This document shows, piece after piece, positions 23,035 through 61,679 of a stretch of DNA of 64,000 bases. The first letter of the stretch is position 1. Every line of letters begins with the position of its first letter. Under the pieces are notes generated by a model. That model had not been told where the DNA came from, searched no databases, and was given only the letters and a program-made list of their open reading frames with translations. Source of the stretch: Minisyncoccia bacterium (GTDB lineage Bacteria; Patescibacteriota; Minisyncoccia; Phycocordibacterales; SBAW01); the NCBI GenBank assembly GCA_049997855.1, contig JBEKSG010000003.1, positions 4,154-68,153 on the forward strand. The letters run 5' to 3'. Position numbers and translations under genes: made by a program.

Positions 23035-23446
23035 TTTTGGGTTTTGTAAATGGATTGTTTGGATTTGGCTTTAATAGATCATCGTCGAAACTTCGATGCC
23101 AGAGAGCGTCGTCTTCATCGATATTTACGCGGTAGTAAAGACGGTAGTAGACTCTTTTGTTTTTATTATGGAATTTCTCCAGTGAACCTTTTTCTTGAAG
23201 ACGCCTTGTCATTTTAGATATGTAGTTTACGTCCTTTACGCCGAGCAAAGCGGCTATCCGTTCTCTACCAGGAAAAATTTCACTTGTGGCTTTGTACTGA
23301 AACCCGGCCAAAGTAATCCACAACGACTTTTCTTGCGGCGTTAGTGCATGGTCGACAAGAAATTTTCGTGGCACCATTACAAATTTTGCTCGGTCGGTTT
23401 TCGTGGACGCTAAAAAACTCCTATATGATGCCATTTTTCTCGACAT
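23021..23446 (-). CDS. winged-helix DNA-binding protein (possible replication/regulatory protein of element)
   Basis: 141 aa with a wHTH-like region (FVMVPRKFLVDHALTPQEKSLWITLAGF...GRERIAALLGV). Confidence 0.35.
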   Translation of the reverse strand: MSRKMASYRSFLASTKTDRAKFVMVPRKFLVDHALTPQEKSLWITLAGFQYKATSEIFPGRERIAALLGVKDVNYISKMTRRLQEKGSLEKFHNKNKRVYYRLYYRVNIDEDDALWHRSFDDDLLKPNPNNPFTKPKNDND

Positions 23447-23773
23447 GATTTTCTTTCAAGACCACTCTGTATAGATTCAGAAGATTTGCCGCGCGAAAAG
23501 CAACCTCCTCGTCAGAGAGTTCGACCCCATATATCTCTCGATATATCTCTCGATATTCTTTTAAGGCTTCTTCCGGCAACATAAATTTGCGCGGAGGGCA
23601 AAACAAAAGCCACTGAGAACGCGACGAAGCACCTCAGTGGCTTTTATTTCGTCGCGTATCAGATTTTTGTTGCTCTCCTACAAACTTGTGCTGACATCTC
23701 AGCGAACAAAGAAAAAACTGTTGTTCCCCAACGGGTTAGTGTTTCTTATTATGCTATTTGCAGCAGACATTTT

Positions 23774-24604
23774 TCAGTCTTTATCCCCTAAAGGGGTCTC
23801 GTACTCAAGTTCTTCATTGAAAGACATACCCGAACGTCGCAACTTTTCTTCTCGTAGTTCCGGCTCTGGTCTTAGCTGGAAGCGCGGTTTATATATGCCA
23901 CCTCTTGGGTCGCTCTTGTAAGAGGATATAGGGTCATCATCTAGCCCGAAAATTTCACGCAGGGCGTGGCCTAGATTCTTTTTTATTTGGTGTACTGCCG
24001 TGTTGTTCTTAAGTTTTAGTGCGTTTCGGATCCCTGTTACTGGAAGCCCGTCAGATAGCTGGAGTAAATTTGCAAACAGTCGGAGAAGTTTCCATTGAGC
24101 ATCAGGAGTTTTTGATGCTGTGGTGGCTTTGTAAAAGCCTAGCATGTCAGCATCATATTTGCCTATAAGTTTTTTTCTCACACTTATCTGGATACTCTGC
24201 GGGCCAACAAACGAAATGAGCACATCTCCCCATCTAAAATCTTTTGGGAGGCCCGGCAGGAGGGTGAATCTTTTGCCGGTTATCTTTTTCAGATAGTTTT
24301 CAATGTTAGCCAGTATTTTTTCTTTATCCCCCTTAACCTGTATGGGAGTGCCCCACATATTTTTGTGGAATGTAACACCCTTTATTGCAGGGATGTCTTT
24401 CCGTAAATTATTGATAGTCGTATACAGCCATTTATTGTCCGCATCATGATATAGATACATAGTGCGTTCGGAAATACCTATACTGAGCCACTTTCTACCG
24501 GGTACGGCGTTTGTTGGGCTTTCGTTTTTAAGGCAATACCGCAGTATCTTAACGGCAGCTATTGCTGCATCCTCGTCGCGCTTCATAGACAAAGTGTAAC
24601 GCAA
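23774..24604 (-). CDS. hypothetical protein (element-encoded)
   Basis: 276 aa AT-rich ORF with no recognisable family. Confidence 0.3.
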   Translation of the reverse strand: MRYTLSMKRDEDAAIAAVKILRYCLKNESPTNAVPGRKWLSIGISERTMYLYHDADNKWLYTTINNLRKDIPAIKGVTFHKNMWGTPIQVKGDKEKILANIENYLKKITGKRFTLLPGLPKDFRWGDVLISFVGPQSIQISVRKKLIGKYDADMLGFYKATTASKTPDAQWKLLRLFANLLQLSDGLPVTGIRNALKLKNNTAVHQIKKNLGHALREIFGLDDDPISSYKSDPRGGIYKPRFQLRPEPELREEKLRRSGMSFNEELEYETPLGDKD

Positions 24605-24850
24605 ATAGAAGGTTGCAACGACCTCCTAAGCGTTGTACTGTTTCTTTGTACAACTGAATAGTGCGAAGGACCTAACCCGTCAGTAATGGCGGCAAGGTCG
24701 AAAAGTCTCACACCTGAATACTAACCCCCGTGTTAGCGACTCAGGTGTGAGCCATACCCCGAAAGAGGCATGGGGCCGCAAGGCCTAAAGCTAGCGCGGG
24801 GCTTAGTGCGTTTTAACCCCGCCGCTGGATTATTTGATAACGCCAGTGGT

Positions 24851-25993
24851 ATGAAAAGACTCTCGATACCAATTTTTATTATCCTCAGTTTTCTAATTGT
24901 TTCTCCCGCGTTCGCTACCTCCGGTGCGTGCTCGTATCACAGCGGCGTAAACTGCACTCTCGGCCCTGCCACGAATGGTGACGCGATTTGCAATGATGGC
25001 ACCGATAGTGCGACTAGCTACTATCTAACGCAGGAGTGCCAAGTAAACATCTGCGCACCGCAATTTGCCAGTACCACCTACCAGGCTTATGTAACCTCCA
25101 ACGCGTCTTGGCGCAGCAGTTTGAACACAATAATTAGCAGTCTCATCAGCTCCCTGCAAAGCGTGGTCGCGAGTGATCAAGATAGTGAGAAAGTAGCAGT
25201 CGCGGCACTCACACAGTCTTACAACGAGGCTATACAGCAGATTCAACAAGATGAAGATGCGGCAGAAGCAGAGTCTTGTGTCTCAGGCTGTCTTGGAGGT
25301 AATGCTTCTGCTGCACAGTCCGTTCAAAGTACCTATCAAGGCTACATAGCTGAAGCCACAGCCTCGTACAATGCGGCGGTAGCACAAGCGGAAGCGGGTG
25401 ATAATGCATCAGTTGTTCAAGCTTGCATCAATCTTTGGACAAGCACCCAGACTAAAATGACCACGGCCGAGTCATATTGCACCAACACCTACGGACCAAA
25501 CAGCGCACCGCTTCCTAGCAATTTACTTTCGTGTGCTTGCGGTAGTGGGGACACCCTCCAAAACGGTGAGTGCGTTAGCTATTTAAATGCTTGCCAGGAC
25601 ATTTATGGCCAGAGCGCTTTCGCAAACAACGACGGGTCTTGCGCTTGCCCGATAGGATTTAACCCCGACGCTACAAATCACACCTGTGATTATGTAGGAC
25701 AAACTGCTACGCCATCTACTCCTGCACCGGTAGCAATGCTCACGCCTGCTCCTGCGTCCGTCTCAGTCGCTCCAGTATCTCAACCTATCAGGAACACTAC
25801 AGCCAGCATTGCAGTCAAGCCAGAGCGAACAATAGAGCCTGCGAACAACACAGCGTTTCGGGTCCCAACGACCACTGCGGCTTCAAGCGTTCCTCCAGTA
25901 ATAAGTGACAACGCACAATCCCGGGCTTCTGTTTGGCAAACAATAGGCGGCTGGCTTTTGAAGCTCAATCCGTTTTCGTGGTTCACTCACTAA
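24851..25993 (+). CDS. secreted Cys-rich protein
   Basis: Signal peptide MKRLSIPIFIILSFLIVSPAFA, many Cys-containing segments and a Pro/Thr/Ala-rich C-terminal region. Confidence 0.4.
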   Translation: MKRLSIPIFIILSFLIVSPAFATSGACSYHSGVNCTLGPATNGDAICNDGTDSATSYYLTQECQVNICAPQFASTTYQAYVTSNASWRSSLNTIISSLISSLQSVVASDQDSEKVAVAALTQSYNEAIQQIQQDEDAAEAESCVSGCLGGNASAAQSVQSTYQGYIAEATASYNAAVAQAEAGDNASVVQACINLWTSTQTKMTTAESYCTNTYGPNSAPLPSNLLSCACGSGDTLQNGECVSYLNACQDIYGQSAFANNDGSCACPIGFNPDATNHTCDYVGQTATPSTPAPVAMLTPAPASVSVAPVSQPIRNTTASIAVKPERTIEPANNTAFRVPTTTAASSVPPVISDNAQSRASVWQTIGGWLLKLNPFSWFTH

Positions 25994-26002
25994 ATCAAAA
26001 CT

Positions 26003-45914: not shown

Positions 45915-45975
45915 AAAAAAGGCTTCGTGTAGGAGTTTCTCGTTTATCTCTCAGGAGCGAAGCCTTTTTTATTTT
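45915..45975. terminator. bidirectional rho-independent terminator
   Basis: aaaaaaggcttcg...cgaagcctttttt. Confidence 0.65.
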
Positions 45976-47170
45976 ATTTTACGATTATTTTTAAGAAGCG
46001 GTGTTTGCCTATGCGCAGAGTTATATCTCTTGTAACGGACGCAAGGGCTTCTGTTATAACTTCTCCGTCAACTTCACTTATAGACCCTTGTTGAAATAGT
46101 CTCCGAAAATTTGATTTCGATTCACCGAAAGCACTAGCGAGTACATCAATGTACGGTATACCTGCAGCACTATTAACTTCTTTGATATCTTTTGGTATGC
46201 CGCCTTCACTAAACGTGCCGACCCAATCTTGCTCGGCTTCCTCTGCGTCTTTTTGAGAGTGGTACATCGCCACTATCTCGCGTGCAAGGCGCATCTTGGC
46301 CTCTTTAGGATAGCCTTGCATGACGCCCGCAACTTCATCCATTGGTATGCGTGTGCACAGGATAAAATATCGCCCGACAAGTTCATCTCTAACCGACATG
46401 ATCTTGCCGTACATATCCTGTGCCGCATCGAGAATATTCACTACGTTCCCCCACGACGAGCTCATCTTCCGTCCATCGGTACCCTCGAGAAGCTCAAGCG
46501 TCATGACATCCTGTGGTTCCTGCTTATAGAGCTTTTGAATATCTCTGCCTGCCAAGAGGTTAAATCGTTGGTCGGTGCCGCCAAGTTCAACGTTTGAACA
46601 TACAGCAACCGAATCATAGCCTTGCATGAGCGGGTACAGAAGTTCGTGGAAGGATACACGCTGGCCGGCATCCATCCGTTTTGCGATAAGTTCGCGAGAT
46701 GCAAATTCGTTGAGCCCGAAGAGGCTCGCCATCCTGGTCAATTCAATAAAACCGAGTTTGCTTAACCATTCGGAATTGTGGTGCGTTTCAGTCTTATCTG
46801 GATCGAGTATCTTGAAAGCTTGCTCAAAGTACGTCTGCATATTTTTCTCGACCTGCTCTTGGGAGAGCATAGGTCTTTCCGCTTCCTTGTCGGATGTGTC
46901 TCCAACAACTCCTGTTGCGTCTCCGATTATAAAGACCGCAGTGTGCCCAAGATCTTGAAATGCCCTGAGCTTCCAGAGCGCTATCGCACGGCCAATGTGG
47001 AGGTCGGGCGACGTTGGGTCGATGCCGAGTTTAACGCGCAGGCGCCTGCCGGAGAGCAACTTTTCGCGCAGTTTTTCTTTAACAATAACCTCGGCAACGC
47101 CGCGCGAAAGCAGCTCGTCTATTGCTTTTTGGTCGGTCGAAACGGCCGGTGTTTTGGTAAACAACCCCAT
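45974..47170 (-). CDS. tyrS: tyrosyl-tRNA synthetase
   Basis: Class I HIGH-like (HIGR) and KMSKS-like (KMSSS) motifs with a C-terminal S4-like domain. Confidence 0.8.
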   Translation of the reverse strand: MGLFTKTPAVSTDQKAIDELLSRGVAEVIVKEKLREKLLSGRRLRVKLGIDPTSPDLHIGRAIALWKLRAFQDLGHTAVFIIGDATGVVGDTSDKEAERPMLSQEQVEKNMQTYFEQAFKILDPDKTETHHNSEWLSKLGFIELTRMASLFGLNEFASRELIAKRMDAGQRVSFHELLYPLMQGYDSVAVCSNVELGGTDQRFNLLAGRDIQKLYKQEPQDVMTLELLEGTDGRKMSSSWGNVVNILDAAQDMYGKIMSVRDELVGRYFILCTRIPMDEVAGVMQGYPKEAKMRLAREIVAMYHSQKDAEEAEQDWVGTFSEGGIPKDIKEVNSAAGIPYIDVLASAFGESKSNFRRLFQQGSISEVDGEVITEALASVTRDITLRIGKHRFLKIIVK

Positions 47171-47197: not shown

Positions 47198-49393
47198 ATG
47201 CGCCAACGCTTAACTCACCATCCTCACAAGATATGGCGGTGGGTAAAAAAACACAAAGTAAAAACGCTGCTGTACGCACTTGGCGTGTATTTTGTGCTCA
47301 TGGGCATCCTCTTTTTGTGGGCGGCAACGCTCCCCTTGCCCGACTTAAACTCGCTCTCGCAAATACGCGTTGACCAGTCGGTTAAACTCTACGATCGCAC
47401 GGGGCAAGTATTGCTCTACGATATCAGCAATAACAACATACAGCGCACCAGTGTGACGCTCGACCAGGTCTCGCCCAACATTCAAAACGCAGTCATTTCT
47501 ATCGAAGACCCTAACTTTTATACCAATAACGGTGTCGAGTTTAAGGCAATCCTGCGCGCCATTTTTGTCGATATCACACACGTGGGGCTCGACCAGGGCG
47601 GTTCGACCATCACCCAGCAGGTGATTAAAAACACCGTGCTCACCAATGACAAAAGCATTGTGCGCAAGCTTAAAGAGTGGATATTGGCGCTTAAACTCGA
47701 ACAGGTGCTTACCAAGCAGCAGATTTTAACGCTCTATGTTAACCAAGTGCCTTACGGCGGCACGATGTACGGCGTTGAAGAGGCCTCCGAAACTTTTTTT
47801 GGCAAGCATGCAAGCGAGGTCGACCTGGCCGAGGCCGCCTATCTGGCTGCAATCCTCCCTGCGCCGAGCTACTACTCGCCTTATGGACCCAACAAAACCG
47901 ATCTAGACGCGCGCAAAAATCTCGTGCTCGACGAAATGTACACGCACGGTTACATTACCGCCCCCGAGCGCGACGATGCCAAAGCCGAGCAAGTGGTGTT
48001 TATTCCACAACAAAGCAGCTCGATACAAGCGCCGCACTTTGTGTTTTATGTCGAGCAATATTTAGAGCAAAAATACGGCGAGGATGCGATACAAACGAGC
48101 GGTTGGAAGGTCACCACGACGCTCGATGCCAACATGCAAGCCGAAGCCGAGTCGATAGTAAAAGCCGGAGCGCTCAGCAACACCTCCAAATTTAACGCAA
48201 GCAATGCCGGCCTTATCGCACTCGACCCCACAGACGGACAAATCCTCAGCATGGTGGGCTCGCGCAACTATTTCGACACTCAAATAGATGGCGCATACAA
48301 CGTGACGCTCGCCAACCGTCAGCCGGGCTCGGCGTTTAAACCCTTTGCCTACGCCGAGGCGTTTATCAAGGGCTACACGCCCGACACCGTGCTGTGGGAT
48401 GTGCCAACACAATTTTCCACTAGCTGTTCGGGGAGTAACTTTAGCAACGTTGCGCCGTGCTACTCGCCGGTTGATTATGACAACAAATTTAGAGGTCCGA
48501 TGACGTTGCGCGACGCCATCGCGCAGTCTATTAACGTGCCGTCGGTTAAGGTGCTCTATCTCGCCGGCATTGCCGACACGCTCCAACTTGCCAAGTCGAT
48601 GGGCATCTCGACACTCGGCAACGCCGACCAATACGGCCTTACCCTCGTGCTCGGCGGCGGCGAGGTAAACTTGCTCGACATGTCGAGCGCCTACGGAACC
48701 TTTGCCACCGACGGCACACACTACCAACCGACGGCGATACTAAAAATTGAAGATTCAAACGGCAACGTTATCGAAGACGACTCGCAACCAACCGGTACGC
48801 AGGTGTTGCAGCCGCAGATAGCCGAAGAAATAAACGACGTACTCTCCGATCCGGTGGCGCGCGCGCCCTTGGGCGAAAACGAGTATCTCCAATTCCCCGG
48901 TTACGATGTGGCGGTTAAAACCGGTACTACCAACAACTATAAAGACGCGTGGACCATTGGCTATACGCCAAACCTTGTGGTAGGCATTTGGGCCGGCAAC
49001 AACGACAATAGCCCCATGACGCACAACGTGTCGGGCTTTATCGTCGGACCGATGTGGAATCAGTTTATGCAATACGCATTGCCTACGCGCCCCACGCAAT
49101 ACTTTACGCGCACCATAGTAAACGAGAGCGGCCTCAAGCCGATATTGCGCGGCGACTGGCAAATCCCGGGCAGTGACGGCGCACTGCATGAGATACTCTA
49201 CTGGCTCAACAAAAACGACCCCACAGGCCCGACACCGCCCGACCCAACCGACCCGCAATATAGTTTGTGGGAAACAGGGTTAAGCCTGTGGCTCACACAC
49301 AACACGCCCGCCGGTCTCTCAACAACACCAAATTCGGGCCAAGTACAAACATCAGGAGCACCAATGATCCCTGTTGGCCCCGTGACGCAATAA
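47198..49393 (+). CDS. class A penicillin-binding protein (transglycosylase + transpeptidase)
   Basis: GT51 motifs (EDPNFY; GGSTITQQ), TPase motifs (SAFKPF; KTGT) and an N-terminal TM helix. Confidence 0.85.
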   Translation: MRQRLTHHPHKIWRWVKKHKVKTLLYALGVYFVLMGILFLWAATLPLPDLNSLSQIRVDQSVKLYDRTGQVLLYDISNNNIQRTSVTLDQVSPNIQNAVISIEDPNFYTNNGVEFKAILRAIFVDITHVGLDQGGSTITQQVIKNTVLTNDKSIVRKLKEWILALKLEQVLTKQQILTLYVNQVPYGGTMYGVEEASETFFGKHASEVDLAEAAYLAAILPAPSYYSPYGPNKTDLDARKNLVLDEMYTHGYITAPERDDAKAEQVVFIPQQSSSIQAPHFVFYVEQYLEQKYGEDAIQTSGWKVTTTLDANMQAEAESIVKAGALSNTSKFNASNAGLIALDPTDGQILSMVGSRNYFDTQIDGAYNVTLANRQPGSAFKPFAYAEAFIKGYTPDTVLWDVPTQFSTSCSGSNFSNVAPCYSPVDYDNKFRGPMTLRDAIAQSINVPSVKVLYLAGIADTLQLAKSMGISTLGNADQYGLTLVLGGGEVNLLDMSSAYGTFATDGTHYQPTAILKIEDSNGNVIEDDSQPTGTQVLQPQIAEEINDVLSDPVARAPLGENEYLQFPGYDVAVKTGTTNNYKDAWTIGYTPNLVVGIWAGNNDNSPMTHNVSGFIVGPMWNQFMQYALPTRPTQYFTRTIVNESGLKPILRGDWQIPGSDGALHEILYWLNKNDPTGPTPPDPTDPQYSLWETGLSLWLTHNTPAGLSTTPNSGQVQTSGAPMIPVGPVTQ

Positions 49394-49416
49394 AAAAGGC
49401 TACCGTTTTGAATATG

Positions 49417-51516
49417 TCACGACAACTTATTCTCCAATCGAAATTTGGTAGGACGAATTTTAATTGCAAGTTGTAGATTCAATTCTTTCGCCAAAGCAAA
49501 ACAAAAATGACAAAGCCGCTTCGAGTCAAAATTAGTGAGTAGCCATAAGCCGTTTTTCAATTTTTTTCTAAGTTTTGCTTCATCACTAGATTCGAGAACG
49601 TCTTTTATTAATAACTGTCTGTCACCCCCATCGATAAAACTAAGGGTGCTTTCGGTCAAGACAAATGTTTTTGAATACAATTCAACTAGGATAACAAACA
49701 GTTCAGACCACGTCCCCCCTTCTTTGAATTTTTGGCCACCTAACGAATAACTTTCTGGCTTCGTGTATCTAAGATCACCATACTTTGCATAATTACTTGT
49801 GTTTAGTTCAGATTTATATTCTAGCTTTTCACCAAAAGAAGAGTGACGTAATTTATCTAGAGAAGACGGAGATTTAAAGAAATATTGATAATTGTTGAAA
49901 GTTGGATCTTGTCGTTGAGTCGCCATTGCAACACTAAGAAGATTCATGACTCTCTCGCTGTTTTTCTCAAATTCTTTTTTTATCTTTTCTAACGAACCCT
50001 CTTTTGTAGCCATTTCTTCGAGAATAATACCTTCTGGTATTAACACCCACAGCTTAAAGAGTGTCAACAAATGCAAAAGACCGGTACTAAACAAACTTAA
50101 TTCATCTAAGGAATAATTAGGTCGATTTTTCTTCAGTTTCTGCTTGAACCATTCGAGAAGTTTGAAACTTATCAACAAAGAGTGCGCACTAATTTGATTA
50201 TGAAAAATAGTCGTGTAATACGCATTATATATTTCAGCTTTTTTATTCTTTGCCTCAGATGGCCTCTCAAGAAAAAGTGACATGTACGCTTGGGCAGCTT
50301 TTTCAAGATCAATGATTTTTTCTTTTTTTACATTTCCATCGTTAGTGTATAATCCCCTTTTCCTTTGGTAAAAATATCCAAGGGAATTAAATTGGGCCTC
50401 GAGTTGTTTTTGTATATCATCTTCACTAATTAGGTCTCTATTGTTTACCGTCGATTGTGTGTTTGATGCTTTGATAATTGCCTCTTTTAGTTTTGGATCG
50501 GAAGATTCAATTATCCGCACCAACACGTGTCCGGTATTTTCTTCAATTTTCCCAAGTTGATAAACGTCTCTTATTGTACTCGCAGTTTGGCAACCGTTGA
50601 TTAAGGATGGATTTGTTAACTCAACAATTTCATTACCAACCTTGATTTGATAATTATCGCAGAGAATGGTAATTCCATTATTTAAGTAGATAAATGTTTC
50701 TATTGCTTCCTTGTCTAACAAAGTTTTCTTTATTTGATCGTTTATTTTATTTTCACCAAGGTACCCGCGGACATTAGCGTTAAATATGTTTGGTTTGTCC
50801 TCGACTAATTTAGCAATCTCGAATACGTCGACACGTACAACCTTTCCTTTTGAATGATTAATATCCGGTAGATCTAAAAAAGTTTTTGCACCAGCGCCCG
50901 TATCTTTAACAACTTTGATAGATACCTTACCCACAGGTTTCGTTGAGGGAGGTAATATCAATTCTGCTACGTCCTTTTCAGTAAGAATTTCATAGTTGAC
51001 CTGCTTATCGCTTTCATTTGAAAATCTTTCTAATTCCTCGTAGAGCGAAGCTTGCGGTCTTTTGCCATTAGTTAGAAAGAGAAGTTTTATTTTATCGATT
51101 TCCCCTGATTGAAAGGAGTTTCTGGCCGATTCTATACGAGGTTTGAGTTTAGGATTCAAAACATTTGTGGGAGCATCACCTAATACATAATTCCGAACAG
51201 TTTCGACCATTAAAGTTTTAGCTGTTTCGTCTAGCGAATTATTTGGGTTCTGTGCAAAATATTTTGACTGCACAATATAAAGAATATTATTTCCATTCTC
51301 GTCGACCTGGATGAAAATAGCATCAATCCCCTTATCGTTGCCGCCATCGGTTATCGCTTCTTCAACTTCTATCTCATCGAGCCCGTAAATATTTTGAAGA
51401 CAAAAAATTATGAAAGCTGTTGACGGCTGACAACTAAATTCTTTTGCCGTCTCTTGAACTCTTGCAGCTAGAGTGCTTTGAATACGTGGGTTTGACATAT
51501 TTTTAATAATACTCAA
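49417..51516 (-). CDS. AIPR-family abortive infection protein
   Basis: 699 aa with an AIPR-like core (IYLNNGITILCDNY...INGCQT); markedly AT-rich; begins 8 nt after the dnaN stop. Confidence 0.75.
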   Translation of the reverse strand: MSIIKNMSNPRIQSTLAARVQETAKEFSCQPSTAFIIFCLQNIYGLDEIEVEEAITDGGNDKGIDAIFIQVDENGNNILYIVQSKYFAQNPNNSLDETAKTLMVETVRNYVLGDAPTNVLNPKLKPRIESARNSFQSGEIDKIKLLFLTNGKRPQASLYEELERFSNESDKQVNYEILTEKDVAELILPPSTKPVGKVSIKVVKDTGAGAKTFLDLPDINHSKGKVVRVDVFEIAKLVEDKPNIFNANVRGYLGENKINDQIKKTLLDKEAIETFIYLNNGITILCDNYQIKVGNEIVELTNPSLINGCQTASTIRDVYQLGKIEENTGHVLVRIIESSDPKLKEAIIKASNTQSTVNNRDLISEDDIQKQLEAQFNSLGYFYQRKRGLYTNDGNVKKEKIIDLEKAAQAYMSLFLERPSEAKNKKAEIYNAYYTTIFHNQISAHSLLISFKLLEWFKQKLKKNRPNYSLDELSLFSTGLLHLLTLFKLWVLIPEGIILEEMATKEGSLEKIKKEFEKNSERVMNLLSVAMATQRQDPTFNNYQYFFKSPSSLDKLRHSSFGEKLEYKSELNTSNYAKYGDLRYTKPESYSLGGQKFKEGGTWSELFVILVELYSKTFVLTESTLSFIDGGDRQLLIKDVLESSDEAKLRKKLKNGLWLLTNFDSKRLCHFCFALAKELNLQLAIKIRPTKFRLENKLS

Positions 51517-51523
51517 GCTTAAA

Positions 51524-52621
51524 TTACCGGTTCATTGGCATGGCTAGGTAGAGGAAGCTCTCGTCGGCGGCATCTTTGATGAGGAGCGGTTTGCCTGCGC
51601 CGTTGGCGCGTATGCGCACGCTGTCTCCTGTGATTGCCTGCAAGCTGTCGGCGAGGTAGCGGCCGTTAAAGTTCATTGTGCAAGGCTCGCCCGATATGGT
51701 GGCGCGCACGGTTGAGATTTGCTCACCCACGTCCGGGTTGCGTGACGAAAGAAAGATTGCCTTTTTTGCCGGGTCTATCGTAAAAGTAACCTGCGCAAAC
51801 TTGTCGGCAAACACCGAGAGCGATTTGAGCGCCGCCGAGAAATCCTCGCGCAATACCACTGCCTCAGAAATAAATGACTTGGGGATGATTTGACGATAGT
51901 TAGGAAACGCGCCGTCGATAAGGCGGCTCGTGTAATACACGTCTCCCACGTGGGTGGAAATTTGGTTGTCGTTGTAATACAACTCAACCTCGACGTTTGC
52001 CGTCTCTACAATGCGCATGAGCTCGGCCGCGTTGCGCGCCGGCACAAGCAAATGTGCCACACTGCCGCCGGAGCGGAGCGGAATGCTCTTTTCGGCAAGC
52101 CGGAAGGAGTCGGTTGCTGCGGTGGTAACCTTGCCTGCTTCACCAAACAGCAGGACGCTCTGTTGCTCGGGTTTAATCGCCGAAGTCGAGGCACAGTAAG
52201 CCACACTCCTAATGGCGCGCGTGAGATCGCCTGATTTAACCGTAAACGAGCGCTCAGCCGACACGTGCGGTAAAATCGGGAAGTCGTCATGCAGGATGGT
52301 TTTGATCGAGGCCGACGCGCGCTCGGTTTCGATTTTAAACAACTCACCCACCAACGCCGCTGAAATATTTTTACCCCGTGCGTTCGACAAAAACCCAAGC
52401 AACACTCCTCCAGGCACAGCCGCAACGCCATCGTGTAAAACTTTTGCCGCAAAGGTTACCTCAACACCACACTCAAGGTTGGTGGCCCGCAGTACTATCC
52501 GCCCACCATCAGCTGTTATCAAAATACTCCCCAACACCGGCAGATTGGCTTTGCGCTCAACAAAACGGGCGGCAGTTGTCACTGCTTTAAGAAGTTGTTC
52601 GGTTGTGCATTCAAACTTCAT
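51524..52621 (-). CDS. dnaN: DNA polymerase III beta sliding clamp
   Basis: 365 aa with the three-domain clamp pattern, downstream of dnaA. Confidence 0.9.
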   Translation of the reverse strand: MKFECTTEQLLKAVTTAARFVERKANLPVLGSILITADGGRIVLRATNLECGVEVTFAAKVLHDGVAAVPGGVLLGFLSNARGKNISAALVGELFKIETERASASIKTILHDDFPILPHVSAERSFTVKSGDLTRAIRSVAYCASTSAIKPEQQSVLLFGEAGKVTTAATDSFRLAEKSIPLRSGGSVAHLLVPARNAAELMRIVETANVEVELYYNDNQISTHVGDVYYTSRLIDGAFPNYRQIIPKSFISEAVVLREDFSAALKSLSVFADKFAQVTFTIDPAKKAIFLSSRNPDVGEQISTVRATISGEPCTMNFNGRYLADSLQAITGDSVRIRANGAGKPLLIKDAADESFLYLAMPMNR

Positions 52622-52832
52622 ATGTTCTTTATAAAAAATCTATTACTACTATTAAGGGTGTGAATTGGTGGAAAAGTGACGGTAAGGATTGCGTTGTAAG
52701 AGTTTGTTGTTGGAGCGATGTTTGCATACGCGGTGGATAACTAAGCGCTCATATGTTTGGTATGTATTGATTGGTTGATTTTACACACTTGTCCACAACA
52801 CTGTCCCCTTCTATTACTACCACTTATCCACT
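52622..52832. promoter_or_regulatory. dnaA-dnaN intergenic region with DnaA boxes (oriC component)
   Basis: DnaA-box-like 9-mers: tggataac (52734..), ttgtccaca (52789..) and ttatccac (52824..). Confidence 0.5.
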
Positions 52833-54176
52833 TCATTTCAACATGAGACGGATTTGGTGCATTTCTTGATTGAGCGCGCTGTCGGTGTGTAGGTCGGTTT
52901 TTATTTTTTCGCACGAATGAATGACGGTGGTGTGGTCGCGGCCGCCAAGCTTCTCGCCAATGGTTGGAAAGGAGATGTGGAAGTCCTCGCGTAGGAGATA
53001 CATGATGACCTGGCGCGGCCGTACCACCTCTTTGCGGCGGGTTTTTTCATAAATGCTGTTTTCCTCGACACCATAAAAGCCGGAGATTGCTTTGACTACA
53101 TCTTGCACCGACACGGCTTTTTTAGTCGAACTGCTCGCGCTCCGGAGGAGCGCTTTAGCGTCGTTAATAGTGAGAGGTTCACCGCGCATCTCAAACTGTA
53201 TAAGGAGCATGTTGAGCGCGCCCTCAAGCTCGCGGACATTGCCCTCAATAGTGGCTGCTAAGTACTCAAGCACCTCGTCGGGGAGCATTACATTATGGAC
53301 GGCGGCTTTTGCGCGCACGATGGCGAGGCGCGACTGGTGGTCGGGCGGCGTTACTGCGACGACCATCCCCGCCGCAAGGCGCGACTTCAGTCTGTCCTCG
53401 AGGTTTTGGATCACATTTGGGTGTTGGTCGGACGAAAAAACAAGTTGCTTGTTGTTGTCGTGGAGATAGTTAAAGAGATGAAAAAATTCCTCTTTTATTT
53501 TATCGCGACCCGCCAAAAACTGCACGTCGTCCATGATGAGGAGGTCATACTGGCGGTACCGCTCTTTAAAGTTTTGCACTTTGTCCGCTTGGAGGCTCGA
53601 TACGTAATCCATCGAAAACTTTTCCGACGTGACATAAAACACCTTACGCTCAGGCGTTTGTGTCCGAAAATAATTGCCGACAGCTTGTATAAGGTGCGTT
53701 TTGCCGAGGCCGGTTGGCCCGTATACCAAAAGCGGGTTGTACGCGATGCCCGGTTTACGGATAACCGCCTGCGCCGCGGCGTGTGCAAGCTCATTAAACG
53801 GCCCAACCACAAATGATTGCAGGGTAAAGCGCGGGTTTAAGTTTGTTTTGGCGTGCACGGTTTCGAGAGGCAGCTCCGCAGACGCGGGGGGTACGATGTG
53901 CGGCGGTTCCTCGACCGTTTTTTTGACTCCACGCGATATGACATACTCGACCGCGCGCACGCTGTCGGAGAGACCGCGCAAAGAGCGTAAAATGTCTTTG
54001 TGGAATTTTGTTGAAAGCCAGTCGCGGGCAAACTGGCTCGGCACGCCGAGCGCTACGGTGCCGTCCTCGACGCGCACGATATGCGTGTCTTTAAACCACG
54101 TATTAAAATTGGGTTTTGAAATAGTCAGTTCCAGTTCCACCAATGCATTTTCCCAGAGCTCTTTCGTGGTAGTCAT
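52833..54176 (-). CDS. dnaA: chromosomal replication initiator DnaA
   Basis: AAA+ motifs ([10 protein letters not shown]) and a C-terminal DNA-binding domain. Confidence 0.9.
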
Positions 54177-54276
54177 AGTACGTTTCTCCCAGCATACGCG
54201 TGCGCGGCCTCTCCGTCAAAAACGGCATACCAGTGCATAAGTTGTGGAGAAACTGTGGATACAGTATATTTGACGC
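54177..54276. promoter_or_regulatory. rpmH-dnaA divergent intergenic region with DnaA boxes
   Basis: ttgtggaga (54242..) and tgtggatac (54255..). Confidence 0.5.
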
Positions 54277-56002: not shown

Positions 56003-57227
56003 CACCCCACAACTCGCGGGTGCCTTTGGTAGTAAAGGAGAGGTAGTGTTCGTCCGGCGAAAGCGCCATTTCTAAAATATCGGAAGCAACACCGCCGTCT
56101 GTACCTCCCGGCGAGGCAACAACGTTTTCAGCGGCAAGATTTGTATATATCCTAAAAATATTATCAGCAGAACTGGCAAGCCCTTGATGCCAAAGGTCAA
56201 GGTAATTTGCCGGGACGGATTGTATAGGTGCCGCGCAGTACATCACGGTATTTGTAATGTTGTCCCAAATACATTGTTCAGGAGACGGATTTATAGGAAG
56301 AAGCGCATTAAGTCCGCTTTTCACATCATGTAAATATGAGGTTTTGGTTGTGCCGTCAGATATCTGATATAGGAGCATAGAGAAAGCAGAATTAGCCGTT
56401 GCCGTCAGCCCCTCTGCATATACCAGTGGCGTTACTGCCCCGCTTTTTGCATCGACTGAAAATACTATACCCGGTACTCCCACTGACAATTTGCTTTGCA
56501 CTAAAAGAGTGCTTGGTGCCGGCCAGGAGACAAGCACTTGTGCAAGCGGAAGGGAAAAAAGTTTTTTAGCGCCGATGCCGTCGGATTTTGCAATGTAGCC
56601 GCTTGAGCCGTCTGATGTTTTGAGCAAGTAGGCAACGTTTTTGCCGTCAGGAGAGGCGGCGAGGTCGATGATATTGTCAGGCAAAAATTGTATGCGCGTT
56701 GCCGCAAGTTGAGTGCTCGTGGTCGCTGCGGGCAATCCGAGATATACGCTTTTAACCGTTGCTCCGTCGGTGTCGATATATTGCAAAATCGCGGCATTGC
56801 CCTGCTCAAGCCACACCACCTGCTCAATGCCCGGGATCGTTACATCAGAGACAACACGCGGCACGGCGCCCGGCACATCAAGAGGCGCATCATACACGTG
56901 GCCATCCTCCTGGTTTACATATCGCGCGAGCGTGGTGGTCGGGTGCAATGTTTGTATAAGCGTCGCTCCCGCAATTGGGCCGCCATTTATTTCAAATATT
57001 TTTTGCGTTGCCGATTGCGAAGCTGGCAGCGTGCCATTGGTTGCGGTGTTGGTGTTGGTGTTTGTGTTAGGCGTAGCCGTTGTAGTGTTGCTTGTCGAAG
57101 TGCCAAATAATGCGGTAGTTGATATAGTTGATGTGGCAGAAGAGCGGAAAAAGAAAAACCAAATAATTAACACCGAGAATGTTACAATCCCCACAAGAAT
57201 TAAACTTAATTTAAGTGTTTGCGTCAT
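55986..57227 (-). CDS. membrane-anchored beta-propeller-like protein (T4SS-cluster associated)
   Basis: N-terminal TM helix, a T/N-rich linker and a repeated beta-strand region. Confidence 0.35.
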   Translation of the reverse strand: MTQTLKLSLILVGIVTFSVLIIWFFFFRSSATSTISTTALFGTSTSNTTTATPNTNTNTNTATNGTLPASQSATQKIFEINGGPIAGATLIQTLHPTTTLARYVNQEDGHVYDAPLDVPGAVPRVVSDVTIPGIEQVVWLEQGNAAILQYIDTDGATVKSVYLGLPAATTSTQLAATRIQFLPDNIIDLAASPDGKNVAYLLKTSDGSSGYIAKSDGIGAKKLFSLPLAQVLVSWPAPSTLLVQSKLSVGVPGIVFSVDAKSGAVTPLVYAEGLTATANSAFSMLLYQISDGTTKTSYLHDVKSGLNALLPINPSPEQCIWDNITNTVMYCAAPIQSVPANYLDLWHQGLASSADNIFRIYTNLAAENVVASPGGTDGGVASDILEMALSPDEHYLSFTTKGTRELWGVRLAQ

Positions 57228-58249
57228 TGTTTATAGCAATATTGTTGCCAAATCCACGGTGCCCATTTATATCCCGCGTTTGCGCCTGTAGCATCTGTAG
57301 CATTTGTGCAGCTTTCTGGTGTTGTATAAGCTGGCAAATAACAATAAGCTCCACTGCCAGAACCAATACTTGAACCCTGAGTCCAGACTGCTCCTTGTCC
57401 TAAATTCGAACATGCTTGCGCAGCTGCTTCGTCAGAGTTTCGCAAACATGTAGTAGTCCATATGCCGGCATTGGTTATGTTACCGCAGTACTGAGCCGTA
57501 CCACAACCTTCCGGAAAATCGCCGCAAGGTGGTGCTGTAGCTTGCGCAGGGTTGTTAGAGTTATTGTTTGAGGTGTTTGAGTTTGCCGTAACTGTACAAA
57601 GTCCTTGTTGTTGCATGTCTTGCGTGCACGGATTTAAATTAAAACTAAGCAATTTAGGATTAATAGTGTTAAGGATAAGCCACGAAGCTGCGATGAGCAC
57701 TATTCCCCACAATGCAGCTTGTGCTCTTTTAAGACCTTCTTGTTTTGTCTTAATTGTGCTGGAAACCATGTACTCGATGCCGCCGACGGTGAGCATGAGT
57801 ACTGCAAGCAATGCGCCGACACTGATGAGGATAGTAAAAATGGCGTTCACAATAGTCGGCAGATTGCCAGGATTGGTAAGATCGGGGTTGGTAGTAAGCC
57901 CTGGTATAGGCTCAAGCGCCTGGTATGGCAGGTTAGTACCAGTATTTGCAGGCGCTGTTGCTGCCGGAGTTGCTGGAGCTGTCGTCTCTCCTCCTGTAGT
58001 TTGAAATTGATTCATAGGATAGCTGGTCACGGTAGGACTCGCTCCGTTAAGATTTGCTCCTCCTGTCGCAGAGTTAACGCCAGCTGTCGGCGCCGTGTAG
58101 GAATTTCCGCTGGTATCAATTGGTTGAGATGTCAAAGTAGGCGCAGCAGTAGTGTTGACCGGCGCTAGTGTGCCGTATTGTGCATTCGCAACGTGCGGAA
58201 TGCCCAGTATTACGCTAAAAAAGATTAGAAAGAGTAGATTTTTTTTCAT
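57224..58249 (-). CDS. pilin-like protein with two-TM hairpin and Cys-rich C-terminal domain (possible VirB2/TrbC analogue)
   Basis: Signal peptide, low-complexity region, two adjacent TM helices and a Cys-rich C-terminus. Confidence 0.3.
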   Translation of the reverse strand: MKKNLLFLIFFSVILGIPHVANAQYGTLAPVNTTAAPTLTSQPIDTSGNSYTAPTAGVNSATGGANLNGASPTVTSYPMNQFQTTGGETTAPATPAATAPANTGTNLPYQALEPIPGLTTNPDLTNPGNLPTIVNAIFTILISVGALLAVLMLTVGGIEYMVSSTIKTKQEGLKRAQAALWGIVLIAASWLILNTINPKLLSFNLNPCTQDMQQQGLCTVTANSNTSNNNSNNPAQATAPPCGDFPEGCGTAQYCGNITNAGIWTTTCLRNSDEAAAQACSNLGQGAVWTQGSSIGSGSGAYCYLPAYTTPESCTNATDATGANAGYKWAPWIWQQYCYKQ

Positions 58250-59280
58250 AGTCCAAAGAGGCCGCTGCTCGACGATTGCGTGCCAAAGATTATTTGGAGC
58301 GCGGCATTAGCTGCTTGTACCAGCTTGTCGGTATCGTTGTTTTGGAGTGACACGCCAAGCGTGGCGCTGCCGCTCCCCGAGCCGGATTGGAGCAAAGTGA
58401 GCTCTCCGTTTTCGGCGTTTGGCCCGGTGGTGTCGTTGCCGTTGAGCGTCCATGCATAAGTGAGCGCACCGTTTACCAAACTGCTGTTAGAAAAAAAGTA
58501 TGGTACGGCCTGCACGGTGAGCTCGTTGCCGTTGAGCGAAATCCCGGCGGGCAGTGCCGAGTCAAAAATGATTCCGCGCAGGGGGTCTTTGTCGTAGAGT
58601 ACGAGCTCCGGGTCGGTGGCAGGTATGACCACCGAGCCTGTGCCCACTTTGTTGGCGCCGTAATACACGTCTACCGACACGTCCTCCTCTTTTTGGAGTT
58701 GGCTGCCGGTAAAGGTGAGAGAGTTTTGACCAAGTCCCGACTGATCTGGCAGAGGGTCGCTGTCGAGCGTCCATTGAAACGAGAGAGCGCTTACAGAAAA
58801 GCTGCTGCCATTAACCGCGATGCTCGGGAACGCGACCACTTTAACATCCGAGCCACCGCTGTAGAGTGCTTTGCCTTTGTAGAGCGGCGGCACGGTAGTA
58901 TCCGCCTCCCATACGAGATTGATTGATGAAGGGATAAACGTCCAACTGTTGGTGAGCGTGCCCTGTGTTGCAGAATTAACCGTTACTTTTATCTGTGTCT
59001 CGGTGCCGATTGACCCCGTAGTAAAAGTAAAGTCGCGCTGGCCAACGCCTTGTGACACTACCGTGCCGTTTTGGCTCCAGGTGATGGTTGAATTGCCGAC
59101 AAAGGTGCCAACGCCTTGCACCTCGATGGTTACTTGCGTATTTGGTCCCGGTGTTTCGGGCGAGACGACATATTGTATAGGCGCAGGCACAACGCCCGAT
59201 GTTTGGGCGTGTGCCGCTCCCCCCGCACAAAGCAATGCGGCGCAGAGCAAAAAAAGACACTTAAGCGGCTTTTTGTACAT
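58246..59280 (-). CDS. secreted beta-rich protein (T4SS-cluster associated)
   Basis: Signal peptide MYKKPLKCLFLLCAALLCAGGAAHA. Confidence 0.35.
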   Translation of the reverse strand: MYKKPLKCLFLLCAALLCAGGAAHAQTSGVVPAPIQYVVSPETPGPNTQVTIEVQGVGTFVGNSTITWSQNGTVVSQGVGQRDFTFTTGSIGTETQIKVTVNSATQGTLTNSWTFIPSSINLVWEADTTVPPLYKGKALYSGGSDVKVVAFPSIAVNGSSFSVSALSFQWTLDSDPLPDQSGLGQNSLTFTGSQLQKEEDVSVDVYYGANKVGTGSVVIPATDPELVLYDKDPLRGIIFDSALPAGISLNGNELTVQAVPYFFSNSSLVNGALTYAWTLNGNDTTGPNAENGELTLLQSGSGSGSATLGVSLQNNDTDKLVQAANAALQIIFGTQSSSSGLFGL

Positions 59281-59815
59281 AGGGTTTAAAATTGTCGTTG
59301 GCGGCCCTCGTAATGCCGTCAAAGTTTTTCGTTTGGAGTGTTGGGCGTGTGTGCTCTTGCGGAGTTTCACTGTCGTTTGCGGGAGCCTGTGCGATGGTTA
59401 CCGGTTTTGTGCTCAGTGTTGTGTTTTTTATGCCTTGCACGGTTCCTGTTACATTACCGCTTGCAGCAGCGGTAGCAGTCTGCACCAGTCCAATGGCTTT
59501 CCCCGCGAGACCTCCTTCTTTGCTCATATCCTGTACAATCCCCGCGATAACAATGCCTAACCAAAATGGTAAAAAGTCGAGACCGGGGATAAGGCTGCCA
59601 ATAAATCCTGCCGGACCCCATGTGGGATGATACATGCCGTTTGTTACTAAAAGCAGCATGAGCCCGCTACCCATAGTGACATTGATACAAAAACTAAATA
59701 CCAAAGCGAGCGCAATACCGACGCCGGGGATTAACACAAGTCCTGCCGAGACACCGCACGTAAGGCCTGTGATGAAAAGAGCGTAGAGAAGAAGAAAAAT
59801 ATACAAAGGCTTCAT
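59261..59815 (-). CDS. polytopic membrane protein (T4SS-cluster associated)
   Basis: Five TM helices; start placed at MKPLYIFLLL. Confidence 0.3.
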   Translation of the reverse strand: MKPLYIFLLLYALFITGLTCGVSAGLVLIPGVGIALALVFSFCINVTMGSGLMLLLVTNGMYHPTWGPAGFIGSLIPGLDFLPFWLGIVIAGIVQDMSKEGGLAGKAIGLVQTATAAASGNVTGTVQGIKNTTLSTKPVTIAQAPANDSETPQEHTRPTLQTKNFDGITRAANDNFKPYVQKAA

Positions 59816-59819
59816 AGCG

Positions 59820-61679
59820 TTATTGTACCGCGTTTGGCGGAGTTCCCGATTGTGCATCGGCGAGGTCTGCGCGCTGTTTGCGCAAGGCCAGTACCTGGCT
59901 CGGGTCGGAGGTAATAATCTGATCTTCGGTGTAAGAGGCTATTACTTTGATGGCCACATGTTTGAGCCCGGCAAAAAATATTCCCTCCCCCACGTCGCTC
60001 TCGAGGAGCAAAAACTTTTCTTCGTCCGAGAGGTTAAAGGTTTTTTGCAGATTGTCGATGGTGGTCGGCGATTGCTTGAGCAAAATTTGTATCGATGAGT
60101 TGGTAATCATCGGCAAACCGTACGGCGACTTTAAAAAGTCATCGACGTCTTGGGTGATGGTTGCAAGGCCGAGATAATATTTACGGCCGCGCTTTGCCAT
60201 GCTGTAAAGAAAGCTCGCCGTGTCGTCGCTTTTCATCATCCACCACGCCTCGTCAATAACCAGAAGGCGCTTTTTAAGATTTTTGCGGACCGTGTTCCAT
60301 ATAAAGTGCGTGATGATGTACATGGCCACAGGCTTCAAGTCATCCTCCATGTCGCGCACCGAGAAGACGACGAACTTTTTGTTGATATCGACGTTGGTTG
60401 GTTGGTTGATAAATCCGCTCCACGTGCCCTTGGTATATTTTGAGAGGCGTTGTACCAAACTCTCACTCCCCTCCATTCCGGCCAACACAAGCTCAAAGTC
60501 GGAGAGGAGCGGCGGCTCTATCTCGGCAAAGTTGCTGTCGACCGTAATATCCTTGAGCGCGTACGTTTCGGTGATAGCGCGGTCGATGATGGCATCTTCC
60601 TCGGGCGTGAGACCACCAAGCATGATGCGAAAGAGGCCCACGAGCGCCACGATGTTGCTGCGCAAGATGTCGGCCGCGCTTTCGTCCTCGCGCGGTGGCG
60701 CCAAGTCAAACGGGTTAATGTGGTGTTCGGAGTTGAGAGAAATGTTAAAGTAGCGCCCGCCGACCGCTTGCGCCAAAAACTCGTACTCGCGCTCCGGATC
60801 GATAACGATAACCTCGGTATCAAACATAAGCGTGCGCAAAATCTCAAGCTTGGTCGCGTAGCTTTTGCCGGAGCCCGACTTGGCAAAAATGACCGAGTTG
60901 TAGTTTTCCAAGCTAAACCGGTCAAACAACACCAGGCTGGCATTGTGGCGGTTAACGCCGTAGAGGATGCCTTTGTCGCTCGTGAGGTCGAACGAAACAA
61001 ACGGGAAGATTGAAGAGAGGGGCGAGGAATTTAATTTTGAGTTGACGTTGAGTTCGTCGAGACCGATGGGCAACACGCTTTTAAAACCCTGCTCCTGCTG
61101 GAAGAGCGCCGGTTTGACATACACAAGCCTGCTCTCGAGCATCGACTTAATCTCGCTCTCGGCCTTGTCCAAATCCTCGGCGGTTTTGTCATAGATGGTG
61201 ATATATACGCCGACATCGAAAAGTTTTTCCTGCGCCTGTTGGAGCTGGTCGCGCAAGTTCTCGAGGTCTTGGTAGGCGGTGTCGAGCACCGGGTCGCGCA
61301 CCATGCCCTTTTCTTCTCGCACCATAATCTGGCTTTGCACCTCGGCCACCTTTTTTTGGAATTTTTTGAGCATGTCTGCCGAATCGAGCGGATGGATAAA
61401 AATGGAAATATCAAGCACGCGGTCGAGATTGATGACAGGCGCAAACCAGCTGTCGGTGAGGATGCGCGGGTATGACATGACAAAAAACGTGCGCGCGATT
61501 TTGTCGCCCAGGTTTATCTCGCGCGGCGTTATCTTAAGCGCGGAGGGCGCGATGACATCTTGAAGCTCGAGCACGCCCTCTTTGTATATTTGCTCGGGCA
61601 AAATGGGCGCCACCGGCACGGCGGCCGGAGTTTGTTTTGTCTTTAAAAAGTCGAGGAGTGCCATAGTGTTATTGGGCAA
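59820..61679 (-). CDS. VirB4/TraC-family type IV secretion ATPase
   Basis: Walker A (FAKSGSGKS), Walker B (LVIDEAW) and a Gram-positive-type VirB4 N-terminal domain. Confidence 0.85.
   Translation of the reverse strand: MPNNTMALLDFLKTKQTPAAVPVAPILPEQIYKEGVLELQDVIAPSALKITPREINLGDKIARTFFVMSYPRILTDSWFAPVINLDRVLDISIFIHPLDSADMLKKFQKKVAEVQSQIMVREEKGMVRDPVLDTAYQDLENLRDQLQQAQEKLFDVGVYITIYDKTAEDLDKAESEIKSMLESRLVYVKPALFQQEQGFKSVLPIGLDELNVNSKLNSSPLSSIFPFVSFDLTSDKGILYGVNRHNASLVLFDRFSLENYNSVIFAKSGSGKSYATKLEILRTLMFDTEVIVIDPEREYEFLAQAVGGRYFNISLNSEHHINPFDLAPPREDESAADILRSNIVALVGLFRIMLGGLTPEEDAIIDRAITETYALKDITVDSNFAEIEPPLLSDFELVLAGMEGSESLVQRLSKYTKGTWSGFINQPTNVDINKKFVVFSVRDMEDDLKPVAMYIITHFIWNTVRKNLKKRLLVIDEAWWMMKSDDTASFLYSMAKRGRKYYLGLATITQDVDDFLKSPYGLPMITNSSIQILLKQSPTTIDNLQKTFNLSDEEKFLLLESDVGEGIFFAGLKHVAIKVIASYTEDQIITSDPSQVLALRKQRADLADAQSGTPPNAVQ

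Follow-up and report, generated by a model that had tools for sequence, protein, structure and literature searches.

How did a conspicuously AT-rich gene come to lie between two core genes beside the replication origin of a Patescibacteria genome, and what might its product do there? We analysed a 64,000-nt stretch of DNA from a Minisyncoccia bacterium (contig JBEKSG010000003.1, positions 4,154-68,153), hereafter the window, and all coordinates below are window positions. Directly downstream of dnaN, the window contains an open reading frame (ORF) of the AIPR/AbiU family. The reading that we consider probable is that this gene was acquired horizontally and encodes a stand-alone AbiU/AIPR anti-phage nuclease, in which an Mrr-type nuclease domain, an AIPR domain and a SeqA-like C-terminal module would together bring about DNA-state-guided cutting. 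In its basic part, that an AIPR defence gene was acquired horizontally, the claim is ordinary, and the annotation already exists: NCBI lists the protein as 'AIPR family protein [Minisyncoccia bacterium]'.

A foreign gene in a variable slot at the origin

The gene and its immediate surroundings are arranged as follows.

47198-49393, plus strand: gene for a class A penicillin-binding protein (PBP1A), the convergent core flank, with 92-94% identity to its closest relatives
49394-49416, no strand: 23-nt spacer between the convergent AIPR and PBP1A stops, the right breakpoint of homology with relatives
49417-51516, minus strand: AIPR/AbiU-family ORF, intact, 699 codons from a TTG; probable coding sequence 49417-51498, 693 aa from an ATG
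51499-51523, minus strand: spacer of 25 nt from the stop of dnaN to the ATG of AIPR, where homology with relatives breaks on the left side
51524-52621, minus strand: dnaN, core flank, with 93-96% amino-acid identity to its closest relatives
52833-54176, minus strand: dnaA, which precedes dnaN, in the origin region

DnaA-box-like 9-mers cluster at 52732-52832, in the spacer between dnaA and dnaN, and at 54243-54262, upstream of dnaA, and the cumulative GC skew is lowest at about 51-52.5 kb of the window, indicating that the AIPR gene is origin-proximal.

Base composition sets the gene apart from its surroundings. Its GC content is 35.6%, and 31.7% at third codon positions (GC3), in a window of about 50% GC. 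GC and GC3 are 0.544 and 0.623 for dnaN, 0.525 and 0.629 for dnaA, and 0.536 and 0.654 for the PBP gene, so that a GC3 of 31.7% stands against 62-65% in the flanks. No other 2.1-kb stretch of the window has so low a GC content (z=-5.8), and the gene is also the largest tetranucleotide outlier (distance 0.54 vs a median of 0.24). An earlier note, written from the letters of this DNA, had described the gene as more AT-rich than the flanking core genes, and the composition check that we ran bears this out. It had also described a single-gene island, and we indeed find one ORF between core genes at the dnaA-dnaN origin, with no integrase, transposase or partner gene beside it. There is no tRNA near the gene, the nearest being at 33.8 kb, and we found no meaningful flanking direct repeats or att sites around it. 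A 9-nt inverted repeat (AATATGTCA/TGACATATT) is present at the two ends of the gene. We rejected it as a transposon-like end and ascribe it to chance: one arm is the start-codon region and the other is missing at the closest homologue locus.

We compared the junction in 18 related genomes that hold both dnaN and the PBP gene. The dnaN relatives are Paceibacterota/Adlerbacteria-type Patescibacteria metagenome-assembled genomes, and the order dnaA-dnaN, convergent PBP, tyrS and ruvC is conserved in these 18 relatives. The earlier note took recF or gyrB to be the usual neighbour of dnaN; in this lineage the neighbour is instead the convergent PBP1A gene or ybjQ. None of the 18 syntenic relatives carries an AIPR gene between dnaN and PBP, and the gap contains the following.

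9 of 18 genomes: 0-49 bp, no gene
3 of 18 genomes: 398-442 bp with a YbjQ-family gene
4 of 18 genomes: 378-558 bp of other sequence
L012: a GFO/IDH/MocA oxidoreductase gene and a 121-aa ORF, one of two unrelated cargos of 2.2-2.3 kb
L013: genes for an aspartyl protease and Ham1 and small ORFs, the other of the two unrelated cargos of 2.2-2.3 kb

Across the 19 genomes, the slot between the converging core genes at the origin thus holds at least five different cargos. The three genomes with ybjQ are the closest relatives of the window lineage. In concatenated DnaA, DnaN and PBP sequences the window, L001 and L002 are mutually 93-94% identical, with L003 as an outgroup at 85.5%. Since all three closest relatives, including the outgroup, carry ybjQ, this gene was ancestral to the group, and AIPR replaced it in the window lineage after the split from L001 and L002. 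On either side, nucleotide homology to these two genomes stops precisely with the stop codon of the flanking gene, dnaN or PBP, and we found no ybjQ elsewhere in the 64-kb window. Gene order in the relatives thus shows, by sequence comparison, a precise and recent replacement of a small housekeeping gene, ybjQ, in a recurrently variable slot, and not the simple insertion that the earlier note had proposed. Horizontal acquisition itself, also proposed there, holds up in the synteny check: the gene is neither present at this junction across the lineage (0 of 18) nor native in composition, and together these two results exclude a reading of it as a native gene. As an integrase-free, ORF-precise exchange slot in Patescibacteria, the dnaN/PBP junction appears to be new relative to the searchable literature, and the locus offers a clean natural example of single accessory-gene exchange in streamlined Patescibacteria genomes.

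Where did the gene come from? Its four closest homologues share 87%, 87%, 86% and 84% protein identity with the window protein; at the nucleotide level, identity is about 80% and is limited to the ORF. All come from Patescibacteria-type metagenomic contigs of 32-41% GC, where their contexts differ from that of the window: the neighbour is xseA, or the gene belongs to an island that also contains NYN and Fic genes. The wider subfamily to which the protein belongs was examined at 33 loci, and at every one of them the AIPR gene is AT-rich (24-36% GC), often well under the GC of its neighbours. Such consistently low GC is typical of mobile defence genes. Between the window gene and its closest homologue (L023), the ratio of nonsynonymous to synonymous substitution rates is 0.034, which indicates that the family is under strong purifying selection. 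Synonymous sites are saturated, and the sampled homologues are not the immediate donor. AIPR homologues on phages and plasmids are at most 30% identical to the window protein, and none covers its C-terminus. Composition, synteny and homologue distribution, all read from sequence, show that the AIPR gene entered from outside the host lineage, with its best available homologues in low-GC Patescibacteria.

Start codon and expression

The stop codon of dnaN (51524-51526) lies on the same strand, 7 nt upstream of the TTG of the AIPR ORF. The earlier note had given a 699-aa protein starting 8 nt past dnaN. The shared strand and the 699 codons from TTG stand, and the start probably does not: Met7, encoded by an ATG at 51498, is kept in at least 90% of 102 AIPR homologues, and the database copy of the window protein (P0001) has 693 aa. 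On this conservation the true start is more likely to be the ATG than the TTG, which gives a dnaN-AIPR spacer of 25 nt, not 8 nt.

We found no terminator-like site in this 25-nt spacer, and read-through from the dnaA-dnaN operon is therefore the probable route of expression. High expression at this site, as proposed in the earlier note, is plausible on the same grounds. The spacer also contains a -10-like TATTAT 8 nt upstream of the AIPR ATG. At the loci of the closest homologues (L023, L029 and L030), its counterpart is a TATAAT 7 nt upstream of the ATG. This element, having come with the gene, may add a start of its own, possibly a leaderless one, although this is speculative. There is no Shine-Dalgarno sequence upstream of the window gene, as is also the case for most subfamily homologues. 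Two terminator-like hairpins on the minus strand (49217-49229 and 49129-49141) lie 190-290 nt past the AIPR stop. Both are antisense within the 3' end of the PBP gene and could terminate a dnaA-dnaN-AIPR transcript.

Domain organization and the predicted N-terminal nuclease

Sequence and predicted structure together show a protein of three modules: an Mrr-type PD-QxK nuclease domain, the AIPR domain in the centre and, at the C-terminus, a module of ~140 aa. Read from the N-terminus to the C-terminus, the protein has the following parts.

50797-51498, minus strand: N-terminal domain, residues 7-240, with an Mrr-type PD-(D/E)xK (PD-QxK) fold, the predicted catalytic effector
51259-51348, minus strand: catalytic motif DGGNDKGIDAIF...LYIVQSKY, with D65, Q83 and K85
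49942-50784, minus strand: AIPR domain, PF10592, residues 245-525
50584-50598, minus strand: NGCQT core motif of the AIPR domain, residues 307-311
49840-49941, minus strand: helical linker, residues 526-559, which holds the only low-confidence loop of the AlphaFold2 model
49420-49839, minus strand: subfamily-specific C-terminal module, residues 560-699, resembling the SeqA C-terminal domain
49615-49632, minus strand: DGGDRQ, residues 629-634, which aligns with HGRTRV of SeqA; its Arg is present in at least 90% of the subfamily
49519-49548, minus strand: LWLLTNFDSK loop, residues 657-666, which aligns with the YWVITNTNTG DNA-binding loop of SeqA (N150/N152)

The assignment to the AIPR family, made in the earlier note from the motifs ILCDNY and NGCQT, is confirmed by hidden Markov model (HMM) searches. 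Pfam AIPR (PF10592) matches residues 245-525 at E=1.4e-43 (150.2 bits vs a cutoff of 25), covering model positions 1-302 of 308, and the PADLOC AbiU model matches residues 18-498 at E=6.1e-69, covering positions 8-483 of 537. The two motifs are present at residues 284-289 and 307-311, and the invariant residues of the AIPR domain are N248, R250, N259, F275, G281, N307, G308, Q310 and N352. As judged from the alignment, the gene is shown to be intact and to retain all invariant family residues. An AlphaFold2 model of the whole protein, built with 102 homologues, has a predicted local distance difference test score (pLDDT) of 92.7 and a predicted template modelling score (pTM) of 0.83. The AIPR core has been claimed to be related to the DndB, DGQHR and ParB-like families (PMC3506569); at the HMM level we found no similarity of the core to DndB or ParB-fold families.

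Since the AIPR domain spans residues 245-525, the segments without a Pfam match are the N-terminal 240 aa and the last ~170 aa, rather than the domainless C-terminal half of about 350 aa that the earlier note had described. The N-terminal segment carries a nuclease motif, DGGNDKGID65...IVQ83SK85, in which D65 is invariant and Q83 and K85 are present in at least 90% of the 102 homologues and of a set of 44 family members. The model places D65, Q83 and K85 on consecutive beta strands that follow a helix. PD-QxK is the signature of Mrr-type nucleases (PMC11037411). Pfam Mrr_cat is matched by 7 of the 44 family members, one of them over threshold (best 1.1e-5, 26 bits vs a cutoff of 21). One further member matches Mrr_cat_2, and no other family recurs among the 44 N-termini. 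Foldseek returns weak matches, the top PDB entries for the N-terminus being the PD-(D/E)xK nucleases N.BspD6I and Card1; searching the PDB by sequence, with the single sequence or with profiles, gave nothing useful. In recent literature AbiUi has been modelled as a FokI-like nuclease and AbiU-1 placed in the PD-(D/E)XK superfamily (PMC13064643, PMC13099982). An older statement gives AIPR proteins an N-terminal HEPN domain (PMC3506569); we found no match to a HEPN family, and Mrr_cat was matched instead. The motif and the model together point to the N-terminal PD-QxK domain as the probable catalytic effector of the window protein. The earlier note had looked for a novel effector in the C-terminus, which to us looks like a DNA-binding or reader module.

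A SeqA-like module at the C-terminus

Residues ~560-699 have no counterpart in 42 canonical AIPR proteins of ~560-590 aa. Among AIPR proteins the module is confined to a subfamily of ~690 aa, whose members are at least 38% identical to the window protein. We built a profile from 29 subfamily C-termini and searched it against 1.84 billion representative proteins. It matched 50 proteins, 44 of them outside the AIPR family. In these other proteins a core of ~100 aa occurs singly or in tandem, with up to seven copies (P0116, 1252 aa). Many of the module-bearing proteins (P0116-P0159) are large and otherwise unannotated, with tandem arrays of 2-7 copies. As far as Pfam shows, the SeqA-like module is an uncharacterised domain family.

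The link to SeqA comes from individual copies of the module. One protein that the C-terminal profile finds at E=3e-10, P0119, has two copies of the module joined to a type I HSDR_N nuclease domain; by Pfam, one of the copies is a SeqA C-terminal domain (35.8 bits vs a threshold of 25.5). The module also co-occurs with an MTaX1 domain (P0120). When 41 copies were scanned individually, 6 matched SeqA (best 5e-8) and no other family was matched more than once. RAMA was matched neither by the window sequence (E<=10) nor by any of the 41 copies (E<=1). A single-sequence version of the hhalign comparison with SeqA gave P=2e-4, and SeqA was not among the matches of the C-terminal profile to PDB sequences.

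The aligned segments are those with which SeqA contacts DNA. Residues N150 and N152 of SeqA form the DNA-binding loop that touches hemimethylated GATC (PMC2691817). With hhalign, W658-L-L-T661-N662-F-D664 of the window protein pairs with W146-V-I-T149-N150-T-N152 of SeqA, and G-G-D-R633 pairs with G-R-T-R118. An AlphaFold2 model of the module alone has a pLDDT of 81.5. In a library of viral structures it best matches (E~4e-3, template modelling score (TM) 0.46-0.48) a protein from Hokovirus and a 'methyltransferase' from Bodo saltans virus. Sequence-profile evidence of this kind, suggestive rather than decisive, makes it quite likely, in our estimate, that the C-terminal module is homologous to the SeqA C-terminal DNA-binding domain. 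Both the AIPR subfamily with this SeqA-like tail and the wider domain family appear to be new relative to the searchable literature.

Adenine methyltransferases beside subfamily genes

At least 13 of the 33 subfamily loci adjoin N6-adenine methyltransferase genes (a Dam-D12 plus N6_N4 module, MmeI-like or HsdM). Six of the 33 share a four-gene module that encodes a D12-class (Dam-family) methyltransferase, a 174-aa protein, the AIPR protein and an N6_N4 methyltransferase; examples are L022 (6494-10829), L027 (4508-8825), L031 and L045, and the 174-aa protein has a weak PD-(D/E)XK_11 match. This arrangement brings to mind two-methylase GATC systems such as DpnII. At about 7 of the 33 loci a gene for a large MmeI/Eco57I-type adenine methyltransferase lies directly upstream of AIPR, and at 1 of the 33 AIPR belongs to a defence island that also encodes OLD-TOPRIM, UvrD, HsdM and a reverse transcriptase. 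The copies of the closest homologue clade and of the window are solitary. AIPR genes have long been noted to travel with restriction-modification systems (PMC2292703, PMC3506569), and SeqA, RAMA, HARE-HTH, ASCH and winged-helix domains are known or proposed discriminators of N6-methyladenine (m6A) in such systems (PMC4738411, PMC11037411). The adenine methyltransferase neighbours thus make a job in adenine methylation plausible for the SeqA-like module.

We also counted palindromes in host DNA (the window minus 49417-51516), with expectations from a Markov model. GATC is the most avoided 4-bp palindrome (104 observed vs 213 expected; observed-to-expected ratio (O/E) 0.49, z=-9.8), and GGCC (O/E 0.73) and CTAG (O/E 0.61) are depleted too. 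The AIPR gene shows no clear avoidance of GATC (6 observed vs 7.3 expected). The depletion may reflect long-term GATC-specific restriction pressure, which would be relevant to a SeqA-like reader.

Weighing the proposed mechanism and its alternatives

How could such a protein act? The C-terminal module would dock it on DNA according to adenine-methylation state or sequence, the AIPR domain would couple sensing to activity or regulate it, and the PD-QxK domain would cut nucleic acid and so block phage development. Either phage DNA would be restricted directly, or the infected cell would suffer abortive damage.

Several observations weigh against this reading. The C-terminus of the window protein has no Pfam match, either at E<=10 (residues 527-699) or at E<=1 (residues 545-699). 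The hhalign comparison of the domain alignment with SeqA (E=4.5e-5, probability 69%, 74 columns) used a SeqA profile of low diversity (effective number of sequences, Neff, 1.3), because a search with E. coli SeqA gave only enterobacterial sequences that are at least 82% identical. The counterpart of SeqA N152 is D664 in the window protein and Asp, Ser or Asn in homologues, whereas T661-N662 and R633 are conserved. The SeqA-DNA complex (3fmt) is the rank-1 PDB fold match of the module and is not significant (E=0.66, TM 0.36). A crude motif scan, as opposed to an HMM scan of every ORF, found no methyltransferase motif in the 64-kb window, so that methylation-based self/non-self logic is not demonstrable for this host. 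The slot holds non-defence genes in relatives (ybjQ, the oxidoreductase and Ham1), and location by itself therefore does not imply defence. Polarised substitutions run 31 AT>GC vs 7 GC>AT in the window lineage and 14 vs 5 in the sister stem; amelioration of the gene toward host GC is only suggestive because the sister stem shows a like bias that is not clearly different. Finally, lactococcal AbiU gives only 10- to 100-fold protection (PMC13064643).

The alternative that survives best is a modification-dependent type IV enzyme (DpnI- or Mrr-like), in which the SeqA-like module recognises phage DNA that is adenine-methylated, for instance by Dam, the PD-QxK domain cuts it and the unmarked host survives. 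PD-QxK is the catalytic signature of Mrr, and fusions of a reader with a nuclease are a known type IV design (PMC11037411, PMC4738411). A solitary gene in a window with no methyltransferase motif, in host DNA with strong avoidance of GATC, would also suit such an enzyme. However, the many homologues that sit directly beside N6-adenine methyltransferases are awkward for a protein that attacks m6A DNA, unless the specificities differ, and known type IV enzymes contain nothing that corresponds to the central AIPR domain. We regard this alternative as possible, at well under an even chance.

Classical AbiU-like abortive infection is rather less likely. Here a phage protein or process would trigger the response, the C-terminus would serve protein interaction or oligomerisation, and the resemblance to SeqA would be fortuitous, as the fold match below significance and the lack of a direct Pfam SeqA match in the window sequence would allow. 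The PADLOC AbiU model does span residues 18-498, and AbiU delays phage transcription (PMC13064643). A fortuitous resemblance sits poorly with SeqA being the sole recurrent Pfam family among the 41 copies, with the alignment of conserved residues to the DNA-contact segments of SeqA and with the co-occurrence of the domain with HSDR_N nuclease and MTaX1 domains. It also leaves aside the giant-virus 'methyltransferase' among the best viral fold matches and the many homologues that adjoin adenine methyltransferases.

Could the gene instead be a functionless passenger, neutral, recently landed and possibly silent or decaying? Its acquisition is very recent and its composition barely ameliorated, it has no partner methyltransferase nearby and no upstream Shine-Dalgarno sequence. 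Against this, the 693-codon ORF is intact with every invariant family residue present, tight spacers of 25 and 23 nt separate it from undamaged flanking genes, and most homologues likewise lack a Shine-Dalgarno sequence. Streamlined Patescibacteria genomes rarely retain 2 kb of junk, and we consider a passenger improbable. An artefact of assembly or binning, with an AT-rich piece of another organism's DNA chimerically joined between dnaN and PBP1A, is very improbable. In its favour, the sequence comes from a metagenome-assembled genome, composition changes abruptly at either end and an exact-match scan of metagenome contigs for the dnaN-AIPR junction gave 0 matches, leaving the junction not independently confirmed, but a chimera would switch at one breakpoint and would not insert exactly one complete ORF between neighbours that are syntenic in 18 relatives, both flanks resume host sequence at stop codons, the identical protein is recorded in three sources (NCBI, JGI and Logan) and the same slot holds other cargo in relatives.

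Relation to known systems

Seen as a DNA-state-guided AbiU/AIPR nuclease, the window protein shares with AbiU (AbiUi/AbiU-1 of Lactococcus lactis) and PF10592 proteins an N-terminal PD-(D/E)xK-like region followed by an AIPR domain, in a single-gene system. Unlike canonical AIPR proteins (~560-590 aa), it is ~120 aa longer through the extra SeqA-like module. Members of the AIPR family are often found within restriction-modification or defence loci (PMC3506569, PMC2292703), and phages and plasmids carry them too, whereas the window gene, placed between core genes at the origin, lacks a restriction-modification neighbour. The Mza system (PADLOC) offers a weak, partial match, its MzaE protein sharing the AIPR core (E=3.4e-6, residues 242-379); none of the other Mza genes is present and the flanks are dnaN and PBP1A.

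The likeness to the SeqA C-terminal domain (PF03925) is a suggestive profile-level link, and the alignment takes in a GxxR segment and a W-x-x-T-N loop with a helix after it. Unlike SeqA, the protein has no SeqA N-terminal oligomerisation domain, its module is joined to a nuclease and forms tandem arrays in other proteins, and its role would presumably be defence and not origin sequestration. A putative mark reader joined to a PD-QxK nuclease is also found in type IV and m6A-sensing fusions such as DpnI-like winged-helix and RAMA-Mrr proteins (PMC11037411, PMC4738411). In contrast to those fusions, the putative reader here is neither a winged helix nor RAMA, and an AIPR domain lies between nuclease and reader.

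A more specific proposal, which we put forward tentatively and consider rather unlikely, is that the ~690-aa proteins form a class whose SeqA-like module reads adenine-methylation or hemimethylation state, so that rapidly replicating or foreign DNA would license Mrr-type cutting. Within the searchable literature this ~690-aa AIPR nuclease class is undescribed. If the proposal were true, it would supply a concrete sensing mechanism for the long-mysterious AbiU/AIPR family, and the module, with its up to seven tandem copies and its nuclease fusions, would represent a widespread family of m6A-state readers. One of them would then have landed beside oriC, where SeqA-type reading matters most. As a hypothesis, a SeqA-like reader would place a molecular function behind the association of the family with adenine methyltransferases. 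Bacterial, phage and plasmid genomes commonly encode AIPR/AbiU proteins, and the subfamily offers a testable hypothesis of methylation-state-dependent binding and cleavage.

Other features of the window

A large serine recombinase gene (Resolvase, Recombinase and Zn_ribbon_recom domains; 21086-22777, minus strand) abuts tRNA-Arg(gcg) at 21026-21098. After the recombinase, a lower-GC stretch (44-47%) of ORFs without Pfam matches extends to ~26000. The region 21026-26000 is probably an integrated element and has no relation to the AIPR gene. At 57224-61679 (minus strand), a few kb past the origin region, a type IV secretion pilin-like protein and a TraG/VirB4-like P-loop ATPase are encoded.

The tyrS gene (45974-47170, minus strand) shares only 61% identity with its counterpart in L001 and 28% with the one in L002, against 85-94% for the adjoining PBP and ruvC genes, and its GC3 of 51% is below that of its neighbours. 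Different TyrRS types at one syntenic position among close relatives (L001, L002, L007, L013, L016 and L020) suggest xenologous replacement.

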